Shown here: positions 19,212-23,814 of the stretch, piece after piece | Layout: each line of letters opens with the position of its first letter | Numbering within the stretch: the stretch's first letter is position 1 | From: a virus | Direction: 5' to 3' (one strand) | IMG/VR virus record: IMGVR_UViG_3300045988_174937 | Length of the DNA: 64,000 nucleotides | Translations under genes and position numbers: made by a program | The notes under the pieces: model-generated | Databases searched by the model: none | What the model saw: only the letters and a program-made list of their open reading frames with translations | What the model was told of the DNA's origin: nothing

Positions 19212-20906
19212 ATGACTGACTCGCTACGTCGGTGGGCGGAAGATAACTATCTGGCTATCGAAGAAAAGCGCGACGACGAATTGAACATAATCGCTATTGA
19301 GGGCGTGGGGGACTTCTTGTACCTCCACCCCGACGATAGCGGAAAGATAATCGACGAACGGTTCTCGTTCGCGGTAACGGCTGACGAATTCGACGCGCTG
19401 TACGATGGCGTGGTGAAATACATCCTCTTCGAGTTTGGCGGCAAGTTCTACTACTCGAATATCAAAAAGGACCACCTGCGGCTGGATAAAACCGTGGTTT
19501 TCCGTCCCGAATTCCGCGACTTCAAGTATCTCGGCACCAGTACGGCTGAAGAATTGGTTCCGTTCGTTCACCTGGGGGTTCATAGCGAATACGAGTTCTT
19601 GAACGGTTCGTCAAACTGCGAAGAATGGGCTGCTAAGGCCAAATTCAACCGTATGACGGCTCTTGGTATTTGTGACCGTAATACGCTGGCTGGCACGCTC
19701 GCCTTTCAGACCGCTTGCTTGGGCAAGGGGTTGAAACCTATCATCGGCGAAACTGTTACCGTGGCTTGTAACTACGACCCGGCGGCTGACGTTCAGGAAA
19801 CCTTTTCGCTGAAACTCTACGCCATGAATACCCAGGGATGGCGAAACCTGCTGCTGGTTAATAAGGCTATCAACGTCGATTATCAAGGATTCATACCCGC
19901 GGAAGAACTCTACAAGTTAGGCCGCGGCCTGGTATGTGTAATACCGCCTGATAGCGAATTAAACTATTTCAAGGGGGACGTCGAGCGTTGCAAGCGGTTA
20001 TTGACGGCCTATCACGCCGCATTCGACCGTGTGTACTACCAGATTGATACGGTGGAGTACACATCCGAAACCCTATTCCGCGACCACTTGGAAAGTATTG
20101 ATACCTACGTATGCCGCTGTCGTAAGATTAAACTCTACCGACAGACGCCGCCGCTCGTTATAAACGACTCGTATTACCTCGACGCCGAAGAGGCTCCGCT
20201 GAAGTCGCTTCTGAACAAGGTAGCAGGCGTGGTCAATGCCGAAAGTGCGACCCAGTATTTCAAAAACTCAAAAGAGACGATTCTGGCGTATGAAGAGTGG
20301 ATGGATGTAGCCGCGCCCCTTTACGAAAAGATAATCGTTGGTATGACCAATTCCAGCACGTTGGCGGAGAGTATTGACTTTAAGATACCCACCGGAATAC
20401 GTCACCTGCCGAAATACGAGTTTGTTAAAACTACGGTTGAAGACGCCTTTTTCGAGAAACTGGAAGCGGGCGTACAGGAGCGGCTGGTAGGTAAGGTTGA
20501 TAACCTCGATCAGTATCTGGCGGAGTTGGAAAAGGAATGTGCCATCATCGTACCGAACGGGCTGTGTGACTACTTTATGATACTTTGGGACATCATGAAC
20601 TGGTGTCGCGAGCAGGGTATCATGACTGGGTCAGGTCGTGGCTCGGTTTGCGGTTCGTTGATTGCGTATTGCCTGTACATCACGGACGTGGACCCGCTGA
20701 AATACAATCTCATGTTTGAGCGATTTTTGAACTCTAATCGTGTTGAACCAGAAACAATATTTACGGTCGAGTTGGAAAATGGAGATAAATATAAAATCAA
20801 AAAGGGTGAAGAGATAAAAACAGTTGACGGAAAGTTTGTTAAGATTGAATCTGAAGCGGATTTGGTTGATTTGGATGTTGATGTAACTACTCTGAGACTT
20901 TCCTAA
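19212..20906 (+). CDS. dnaE: DNA polymerase III alpha, N-terminal part (PHP domain and first half of palm)
   Basis: PHP motif [15 protein letters not shown] and palm motif [39 protein letters not shown]. Homology then ends and a stop follows 54 codons later. Confidence 0.85.
   Translation: [564 protein letters not shown]

Positions 20907-23814: not shown

Follow-up and report, generated by a model that had tools for sequence, protein, structure and literature searches.

How can the active site of a replicative DNA polymerase be assembled when its gene is cut within the catalytic motif? This question is raised by a viral DNA of 64,000 nucleotides (nt) (IMG/VR record IMGVR_UViG_3300045988_174937), termed the window here, which means the whole stretch that was analysed. 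In the window the gene for the alpha subunit of DNA polymerase III (Pol III), DnaE, is spread over two adjacent open reading frames (ORFs) separated by A/T-rich DNA. Our best reading, to which we give a probability of about 0.7, is a two-polypeptide polymerase that is split within a half-HINT mini-domain, a small domain resembling one half of the intein fold. According to this reading the spacer is the wreck of an endonuclease gene, and a tail on the first polypeptide and a leader on the second dock the two halves.

ORF1 (19212-20906, + strand, frame 19212 mod 3 = 0) encodes 564 amino acids (aa), and ORF2 (20971-23814, + strand, frame 20971 mod 3 = 1) encodes 947 aa. The DnaE N piece proper (19212-20744, +) comprises the PHP domain together with the initial portion of the palm, from GSGRGS to V512. 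This valine (codon 20742-20744) is the last DnaE residue of ORF1 and is followed by a 52-residue non-DnaE tail that ends at the TAA stop codon at 20904-20906. ORF2 starts with a 15-residue leader, MKIKKVEKISVARQD, and directly after it, at 21016, SMPDIDCDF begins. The C piece proper (21016-23814, +) holds this motif, the rest of the palm, thumb, fingers and HhH, and is interrupted by an intein. Pfam searches revealed a single DNA_pol3_alpha domain that is divided at about profile position 100. Profile positions 5-101 were matched in ORF1 (aa 415-513, E 3.6e-31) and positions 98-260 in ORF2 (aa 14-182). The N piece in addition matched PHP (E 1e-16), and ORF2 matched DNA_pol3_finger and HHH_6. 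Over both ORFs, the PHP domain, a palm with the PDxDxD aspartates, fingers and HhH of DnaE were found. A model of the fused N and C pieces, predicted with AlphaFold 2 (AF2) and searched with Foldseek, resembled the Pol III alpha structures 3e0d, 2hpi and 4jom (E ~1e-47, template modelling (TM) score ~0.7).

Relative to a canonical DnaE, the extra DNA covers 20745-21015. These 271 nt are not a multiple of 3, and in the proteins a total of 67 residues (tail and leader) separates FERFLNxxRV from SMPDID. In 120-nt windows the GC content was 0.34-0.375 over 20740-20980 and ~0.50 on either side. A preliminary description of this DNA, made from the letters alone, had reported a Pol III alpha gene broken inside its palm motif by about 270 nt of A/T-rich sequence. 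The divided Pfam domain, the fall in GC and the 271 extra nt bear this out. The ORF coordinates, the change of frame and the 15-codon leader before SMPDIDCDF given there agree with the ORF list and the sequence, and an in-frame intein at the break had rightly been excluded, as ORF1 and ORF2 lie in different frames.

The junction was then compared between samples. A stretch of 434 nt around it was base-for-base identical in 8 contigs from 8 different samples, and the same spacer and gene layout, with few substitutions relative to the window, was found in 3 further IMG/VR contigs. Thus, the break is not an assembly artefact. The replicative Pol III alpha gene of the window is naturally split inside its active site. 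No terminator or promoter match was found on the + strand within 20500-21300, which is consistent with co-transcription of the two ORFs.

Uninterrupted forms of the gene exist in close relatives. A search with the fused protein returned more than 100 cluster representatives of 1186-1187 aa, all contiguous, on contigs of ~97 kb. Over shared columns the window pieces are ~98% identical in amino acid sequence to these contiguous alleles. At the DNA level, the N piece differs from one uninterrupted allele (L001) at 32 of 1533 nt. At the position of the 271 extra bases of the window, the DNA alignment shows FERFLNETRV-SGERAKSAD-SLPDIDCDF in the contiguous relatives; the short-loop allele sequence at the break site is RVSGERAKSADS. 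The canonical spacing of four residues, to which the preliminary description had referred, is not that of the close uninterrupted alleles (L001 and L002), which read RV-SGERAKSAD-SLPDID instead. An exact look-up placed the window proteins in clusters of 743 and 389 members with lengths of 564, 567, 863, 931, 947 and 1451-1452 aa. Hence, the gene is highly polymorphic in one phage population. Two adjacent ORFs on the same strand, with uninterrupted alleles in close relatives, is also the arrangement known from Aeh1 nrdA. No match to the whole gene was found by megablast among 50,697 phage records. None of the cultured relatives is close, the nearest being Bacteroides, Chryseobacterium and Cellulophaga phages (31-34%).

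The origin of the spacer was revealed by an IMG/VR contig, L065, that was found with a DNA pattern taken from the window's own tail. Tail and leader of L065 are identical to those of the window, and an intact gene for a 247-aa GIY-YIG/NUMOD3 endonuclease lies between them. The window equals L065 minus 699 nt, with the deletion junction between 20917 and 20918: identity runs to ...TCCTAAATGAGACAAT (20917) and restarts at GTTATTATGATGG... (20918). Upstream of the junction, the 11-nt pre-endonuclease stretch AATGAGACAAT (20907-20917, +) is identical in L065 up to ...ATGAGACAAT, after which L065 runs on into the intact endonuclease gene. Downstream of it, positions 20918-20991 (+) are base-for-base the last codons of that GIY-YIG/NUMOD3 gene, namely 23 sense codons (..YYDGDTPPFGWNRGRVKHENKKG) and the stop codon TGA (20989-20991). 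The ~270 nt begin with the tail codons and end with the leader codons; the remainder is the 11 nt of pre-endonuclease sequence and the final 74 nt of the endonuclease gene. No intact GIY-YIG catalytic domain is encoded in the window, where only the terminal 74 nt of the gene are left. The A/T-rich spacer is the wreck of a homing-endonuclease gene. The endonuclease family was assigned from weak Pfam matches of the protein of L003 (SegE_GIY-YIG 6e-5, NUMOD3 8e-4, GIY-YIG 4e-3), and intact relatives are present in L065, L003, L039 and L067.

The retained end of the endonuclease gene overlaps the ATG of ORF2 (20971), and a Shine-Dalgarno-like GAGGA is located at 20956-20960, ten bases upstream. 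The ribosome-binding site and the start codon of ORF2, which lie there, would plausibly explain why this end was retained. The 699-nt deletion also joined a mini-ORF of 4 codons (ATG AGA CAA ..), located upstream of the endonuclease gene, in frame to the last 23 codons of the endonuclease. The resulting relic ORF of 27 codons, MRQCYYDGDTPPFGWNRGRVKHENKKG (20908-20991), starts 1 nt past the ORF1 stop codon and reaches into the start of ORF2, so that coupling of translation could be relayed through it. The in-frame fusion may be due to chance.

Tail and leader were analysed next. Their coding nature was assessed with the sister alleles of 567 aa, which have a different tail (TVPKYWDLEIEGYGKFRLPENVKIPLRNGKEIDIDCDL.NIDLDIDIDKLRTLCKV), followed by a 250-aa GIY-YIG/NUMOD3 gene and an ORF2 with the leader MKILKIEKVEIARQD. 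Between two diverged alleles of this type, L003 and L005, the 57-codon tail showed 21 synonymous and 4 non-synonymous differences (proportion of synonymous differences, pS, 0.62; of non-synonymous differences, pN, 0.03). The ratio pN/pS was 0.05 in the ORF1 frame and 3.6 and 1.2 in the other two frames. The leader showed 4 synonymous differences and none that was non-synonymous. Therefore, tail and leader are translated and under purifying selection in the 567-aa type. In alleles of the window type, codon 20812-20814 (KKGE[E/K/N]IK) reads GAG, AAG or AAT across samples, and looks like a tolerant surface position.

Tail and leader align with an in-frame insertion in contiguous DnaEs, among them P0153, P0218, P0207 and P0159. 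Many contiguous relatives carry this domain of 40-75 residues, in frame and in the same loop. Examples are RV-MPLTYYDVEFKNGEKKRFEKGEPYKDGKVEDLIYSDPDVKKVTESKEMRKD-SMPDIDCDF in P0153 and ...ENKFEIKEIDVKEIKRQD-SLPDVD in P0218. The leader matches the last strand of the in-frame domain, e.g. KFEIKEIDVKEIKRQD of P0218. In every lineage examined the break is positioned just before this strand, which in split forms opens at the initiator methionine. In six split lineages (window, L003, L039, Cellulophaga phi13:1, L066 and L067) the leader is conserved as M-K-I-x-K-[IV]-E ... [KR]-x-D, and the tails share only ~25% identity. Charges are complementary in all six tail/leader pairs, with tails of -3 to -7 and leaders of +1 to +4. 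In the window, the tail (20745-20906, +, including TAA; net charge -6) would be the acidic N-terminal part and the leader (20971-21015, +; net charge +3) the basic last strand of the half-HINT unit. Judged from these alignments, tail and leader are two parts of one conserved, clade-specific mini-domain of ~65 residues. The preliminary description had considered them as a pair and had doubted this for their low complexity, a doubt that is settled by the in-frame homologues.

We asked which fold the mini-domain resembles. Used as single sequences against Pfam and the PDB, the tail and the combination of tail and leader yielded spurious matches (CopK, pYEATS) or none at all, and the link to HINT emerged only from profiles and predicted structure. 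In hhalign, the mini-domain profile matched a set of 16 DnaE inteins with a score of 32.2 (P = 4.8e-5, probability 68%). As a control, 60 column-shuffled profiles reached 13.1 at best and the reversed profile 10.5. The alignment places a tail segment on the intein block-B region, Y..t.esG..I..T.NHkfpT.nGe. The top natural PDB sequence match of the profile was the gp41-1 split intein (E 0.065; profile positions 6-64 against residues 46-105), and a DnaE intein was also among the matches. Hint_2 was the top Pfam family among mini-domain members. Matches to the 'Tako8' PDB entries (E ~3e-7) were rejected: these are designed repeat proteins whose eight repeats all match weakly (single-domain E >300 for each) and reach this value only when added up. 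Matches to the Ataxin AXH domain also turned up (E ~0.05-0.09).

Structure prediction gave a similar picture. The fused window protein was modelled by AF2 from an alignment of 55 rows, in which the leader columns were covered by contiguous homologues only. The model had a predicted local distance difference test (pLDDT) of 89 and a predicted TM score of 0.85. The inserted region (pLDDT 66-80) formed six strands, five in the tail and the leader as the last one (strand 564-575). In Foldseek searches the full-length model locally matched the Npu DnaE, Pho PolII and TFIIB inteins. When the mini-domain was modelled on its own (pLDDT 69), inteins made up ~26 of the 28 best PDB matches, with probabilities up to 0.99, TM ~0.5-0.57 and a root-mean-square deviation of 2.6-3.9 A; identity to Npu DnaE was 23-27%. 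Likeness to HINT was thus found by hhalign, by Foldseek, by the sequence match to gp41-1 and by Hint_2. The gp41-1 intein consists of two C2-symmetric units, residues 3-52 and 60-110, and is naturally split within the second of them, directly ahead of strand beta6 (Beyer et al., 10.1101/546465). The region matched here is this second unit, and the break falls at the natural split-intein site, which is also the place of the endonuclease in inteins that have one. By profile and model, the mini-domain looks like the second pseudo-symmetric half of the intein (HINT) fold.

The residues needed for splicing are missing. A complete HINT fold (motifs A, N2, B, N4, F and G) is not present in tail plus leader, which correspond to the second unit only; neither a first unit with Cys1 nor block F/G nor a terminal Asn was found in them. 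Depending on the lineage, the tail starts with E, T, S, G, M or A, and the block-B TxxH position reads KKGE, PENV or RDGD. Leaders end in ARQD, YFVD, KRPD or YRGD, and the +1 residue is S in the window and Q, G, N or T elsewhere. As the catalytic residues are missing, splicing is not expected. We infer that the mini-domain descends from a once-active intein.

For the distribution of the split, 1.84 billion representatives were searched exhaustively with ORF1 in HMMER, and the 150 nearest representatives at 50% identity were sorted by their loop. N pieces that end 34-63 residues after the RV position accounted for 44 of the 150, and 18 were contiguous and had >20 residues inserted in frame. A medium loop similar to SGERAKSAD was present in 14 and the short canonical loop in 57; the remaining 17 were unclassified (motif not found or other). 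The mini-domain is thus found in ~40% of these polymerases, and the majority of carriers are split. Split genes with an endonuclease occur in L065, L003, L039 and L067, and split genes without one in the window, in L066 and in Cellulophaga phages. The cultured Cellulophaga phages phi13:1, phiST and phi19:2 have no endonuclease at the break and their two genes are 1 nt apart. Tenacibaculum phage Larrie is probably split likewise, with no endonuclease at the break, as suggested by the coordinates of tblastn matches alone. Given the cultured phages and the repeated samples, the split form of the polymerase is viable. The medium loop, SGERAK[SAM]AD (L001 4534-4560; P0160, P0162, P0165, P0179 and P0194), is near-identical in DnaEs that are otherwise 35-45% identical, and it ends leader-like, A[KR]xxD. 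This loop might have been left behind when the mini-domain was deleted, or be an allele that has spread horizontally, or serve as the target of the endonuclease.

The layout of tail, endonuclease and leader recurs with different cassettes, namely in L003-L006 and L017-L027 (567-aa type), L039 and L067, and the endonucleases of these cassettes are 33-56% identical to one another. Two cassette types are present in one population: DnaE is otherwise >90% identical between them, the tails are 24.5% and the endonucleases 46% identical. Related endonucleases were also found at a second site of the same gene and at intergenic positions. The flanks of the insert point to mobility. In the upstream tract 20661-20744 (+), 16 of 84 nt are mismatched relative to L001, as many as in the preceding 1449 nt (16). 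Downstream of the insert, 8 of 30 nt are mismatched, and 19 of 1062 elsewhere downstream. Such a raised mismatch in the flanks is a signature of co-conversion, in which the cassette is copied from a diverged donor.

Further breaks were observed. A second break site of the same dnaE, in other alleles (L007 6001-10455, also L008 and L028), lies ~45 residues upstream of the intein site. There, an 863-aa N piece that ends in ...HYADLLMNLDKKKEQV, with almost no tail, is followed by a 292-aa GIY-YIG/NUMOD3 endonuclease and a 332-aa C piece. In L042 (1370-3819) a different DnaE-like N piece ends at the catalytic-aspartate motif (...HWRHLTAERPEFPD/GLTSLHTVMYVDHPVNV, then a stop codon) and precedes the gene of a related endonuclease. 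The break may here be a different one, shifted downstream by a few residues. In Bacteroides phage BS-TP1 (L058, PQ571274), gp3 is an N piece of 577 aa with an 80-residue tail (...HYFELTLDNGKSIMV...ELQEGDDIIF...). It is followed by a gene for a Dda-like helicase, beyond which the C piece is found in a part of the record that has no annotated feature (positions 451-1533). Thus, a cellular-type gene can come between the two pieces, and this C piece is apparently unannotated in GenBank.

From these data the following course of events is proposed. A unit of tail, endonuclease and leader would have entered the gene via homing-type recombination, with short co-converted flanks. In the window the endonuclease gene later lost 699 nt, and the A/T-rich spacer is what was left; it may still provide the ribosome-binding site and the start codon of ORF2. 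The N piece, with PHP and the nucleotide-binding half of the palm, and the C piece, with the catalytic aspartates, thumb and fingers, would be read from one transcript. The acidic tail and the basic leader would then re-form the half-HINT unit by strand complementation, with the leader strand completing the sheet of the tail. The re-formed unit would pin the catalytic-aspartate strand of the C piece beside the nucleotide-binding palm half of the N piece, without covalent repair. A polymerase of two polypeptides with docking tails had been considered in the preliminary description. The two polypeptides are supported by the coding selection and the in-frame homologues; docking through tail and leader, which would be non-covalent, is suggested by their complementary charges, in analogy to split inteins. 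The two-piece polymerase is presumably enzymatically active; its occurrence in cultured phages, the purifying selection and the DnaE-like model of the fused chain are indirect support for this. Tentatively, with odds slightly short of even, we would go further and regard the dead half-intein, the second C2-symmetric HINT unit, as a non-covalent clasp that travels with a GIY-YIG endonuclease as a self-compensating gene-splitting cassette.

Several points weigh against this reading. For AF2 the ORFs had been joined head to tail into one artificial chain, and such a chain favours the pairing of tail with leader. Confidence in the mini-domain model is moderate (pLDDT 69 alone, 66-80 in context). 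Taken singly, the HINT statistics are modest: E was 0.05-0.07 for PDB sequences and 0.05-1 in Foldseek, and the hhalign probability was 68%. The estimate of selection on the tail comes from the sister type of 567 aa and not from the type of the window, whose tail is almost invariant, codon 20812-20814 being the only one seen to vary. The large palm interface alone might suffice for association, in which case the tails would not be needed. Shine-Dalgarno initiation is often unused in Bacteroidota-type hosts, and the GAGGA may be irrelevant.

Four other explanations have to be weighed. One is an ORF-less self-splicing intron of ~270 nt, of group I or another kind; a group I junction that restores FLNSNR-DSMPDID had been put forward in the preliminary description. 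The endonuclease alleles would then be an intron with its homing endonuclease. The sizes of ~270 nt without and ~970 nt with a GIY-YIG ORF suit phage group I introns, the insert is A/T-rich, a 5' U and a 3' G that restore the frame can be found, and a conserved catalytic motif is the usual site of phage introns. However, a covariance-model scan with Rfam 15 over 20400-21400 gave no intron family at E <= 10 and only three chance-level matches (a long non-coding, a small nucleolar and a small RNA). In favour of an intron, the Rfam group I model is known to miss some subgroups. The region has no excess of RNA structure either: its minimum free energy was -55.4 kcal/mol, compared with -57.9 +/- 4.5 kcal/mol for shuffled sequences (z = +0.55), and 73 of 100 shuffles folded at least as well. 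Differences between alleles behave like those of codons, being located at third positions and synonymous in the frames of ORF1 and ORF2. Moreover, the supposed intron sequence is homologous to protein that is kept in frame in contiguous DnaEs, and six lineages have preserved both the start codon and the MKIxKIE leader. In the Cellulophaga phages and L066 the ORFs abut or overlap (TAAAATG, ATGA) with tail and leader kept, so that there is no room for a ribozyme core outside the coding sequence. We therefore abandon the group I intron and consider any intron here very improbable. Hardly any credence is given to a pseudogene or an assembly error, with replication carried out by the host or a second polymerase. 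Two mobile elements (endonuclease wreck and intein) in one gene would fit such decay, and metagenome sequence can be chimeric. The identical junction in 8 samples and the layout in 3 more contigs speak against it, as do the two intact ORFs of 564 and 947 codons with ~98% protein identity to contiguous alleles, and the split forms in cultured lytic phages and in 44 of 150 representative lineages.

Tail and leader could also be a very small active split intein that trans-splices the polymerase to RV/SMPDID. This would agree with the architecture of N-terminal intein half (IntN), endonuclease and C-terminal intein half (IntC) in fractured genes (PMC2677866), with the HINT-like sequence and predicted fold and with a break at the natural split-intein site. 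The window also has Ser at +1, and removing tail and leader leaves the canonical FERFLNxxRV-SMPDID spacing. Yet only about half a HINT is there, with tails of 52-57 and leaders of 11-15 residues, where the halves of natural split inteins have 88-105 and 33-54. Cys, Ser or Ala at the first tail residue is not a lineage-wide feature (E, T, S, G, M or A), the block-B TxxH, block F/G and the terminal Asn (or His-Asn) are all missing, and other lineages have Q, G, N or T directly behind the leader. Contiguous homologues carry the domain with no means of excision, and Pfam intein models did not match the tails at E <= 10. Active splicing is accordingly a highly improbable explanation. The last alternative accepts the split gene and takes tail and leader as passive baggage: the palm interface would hold the halves together, and the likeness to HINT would be convergent or an artefact. 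The fractured Aeh1 nrdA and Aeromonas phage 25 gp43 function without dedicated docking peptides (PMC2677866), the second split site of the same gene (L007) is almost tail-less, a minimal Pol III alpha of jumbo phages is split at the same subdomain boundary (PMC7824862), and the single-match HINT statistics are weak. Against this stand the strong purifying selection on tail and leader and a leader motif and an acidic/basic complementarity that are kept over six lineages despite ~25% tail identity. Likewise, the break has the same structural position in each lineage examined, and the HINT similarity comes from four independent lines with empirical controls. On balance we consider passive tails unlikely. 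As a side line, the GTTG repeats at 20742 and 21001 were considered as a target-site duplication or deletion; the idea was dropped, because any junction between ORF1 and ORF2 at codon boundaries restores the frame. Ribosomal frameshifting or bypassing that fuses the ORFs was rejected as a general mechanism, because ~750 nt lie between the ORFs in endonuclease-bearing alleles.

The two-polypeptide polymerase with docking tails was compared with known systems. In fractured genes, described at three DnaE loci among others, the halves of a split intein flank a free-standing endonuclease (Dassa et al. 2009, PMC2677866). These split inteins have six HINT motifs and five catalytic residues, with IntN of 88-105 and IntC of 33-54 residues (PMC2677866). 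The split alleles with an endonuclease (L065, L003, L039 and L067) share this order: N part with an intein-like peptide, GIY-YIG gene, and C part preceded by an intein-like peptide. Also shared are an essential, phage-origin replication enzyme as the host gene and the break at a canonical split-intein position. In contrast, the peptides described here form half a HINT with no catalytic residue, and the endonuclease is deleted in the window. Fractured genes without inteins are known as well (PMC2677866). In Aeh1 nrdA (mobE, HNH) and Aeromonas phage 25 gp43 (GIY-YIG) the pieces reassemble non-covalently. As there, an essential enzyme is encoded by two adjacent genes with an endonuclease, here its remnant, at the break, and uninterrupted relatives exist. 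No docking peptides were described for these two systems, whereas the break found here lies within a conserved mini-domain that is under selection and has complementary charges.

The cyanobacterial split DnaE intein (Ssp/Npu; 4kl5, 2keq, 1zd7) likewise belongs to a Pol III alpha made as two polypeptides, and some of the best structural matches of the mini-domain are to Npu DnaE inteins (TM ~0.57, 23-27% identity). Capture in split inteins is electrostatic, between an anionic IntN and a cationic IntC, and is followed by strand zippering (PMC11766414). The Ssp/Npu intein occupies another site of the polymerase than the mini-domain, is complete, performs ultrafast trans-splicing and joins the products of distant genes; here, the genes are adjacent and splicing is not expected. 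In group 2.2 jumbo phages, Pol III alpha is split into an N-terminal nucleoside triphosphate-binding and a C-terminal Mg2+/template-binding subdomain (Iyer et al. 2021, PMC7824862). The boundary is the same as in the window and the pieces are presumed to reconstitute the enzyme. Those forms, however, are minimal, are encoded by distant genes beside a family B polymerase, and no endonuclease or HINT-like peptides were reported for them (PMC7824862). Phage group I introns of the T4 td/I-TevI type resemble the locus in having a GIY-YIG endonuclease at a catalytic motif, A/T-rich sequence and alleles that carry the ORF, lack it or are empty. They differ in that the window has no ribozyme core or excess RNA structure, and the flanking insert is conserved as protein. 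The DnaE of Cellulophaga phiST has been grouped with the DnaE clade of the gut 'Gratiaviridae' (Benler et al. 2021). A term search of that paper found 'intein' and 'homing endonuclease' absent and 'split' in a taxonomic sense only. In a literature search of incomplete coverage, neither this split nor a half-intein that does not splice, be it in DnaE or at a gene break, was found described.

ORF2 also contains a separate, complete intein. This HNH intein (22108-22902, +; 265 aa, ORF2 aa 380-644) is inserted at GFNK/SHAVAY, starts with CLAGSE and ends with VVTCN, before S. Pfam detected the domains Intein_splicing, HNH and HNH_3. The intein is polymorphic and varies independently of the palm split: many sister alleles lack it, and their ORF2 has 682 instead of 947 aa. 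It is a second mobile element of the gene and not part of the break. Versions without HNH, of 175 and 187 aa, were found in P0293 and P0255. The cyanobacterial split DnaE intein presumably sits next to an FNKSH motif in its Ssp/Npu exteins, which would place it near the intein of ORF2. The neighbours of dnaE are genes for a 405-aa protein of the thymidylate synthase family (17993-19210; partial Pfam match, aa 86-261) and a YfbR-like 5'-deoxynucleotidase with an HD domain (23831-24478). The same flanking genes are found in the diverged relatives L039 and L067. They may point to modified-nucleotide metabolism.

If the clasp is real, it would be a third route, besides introns and splicing inteins, by which a selfish endonuclease resides inside an essential gene and yet spares its host, and the selfish element would bring along the peptides that neutralise its own damage. 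It would also describe a fate of inteins once splicing is no longer needed, with an end-state that shifts from splicing to docking. A working half-HINT unit would bear on the proposed origin of the HINT fold through duplication of a half unit, and it would provide a natural source of tiny, orthogonal docking tags resembling split inteins (~50 plus 15 residues). Since cultured phages have the split form (the Cellulophaga phiST group and probably Tenacibaculum phage Larrie), the idea is directly testable. For annotation, adjacent 'DNA polymerase III alpha' genes in Bacteroidota-type phages are to be read as one split enzyme rather than as pseudogenes or paralogues.

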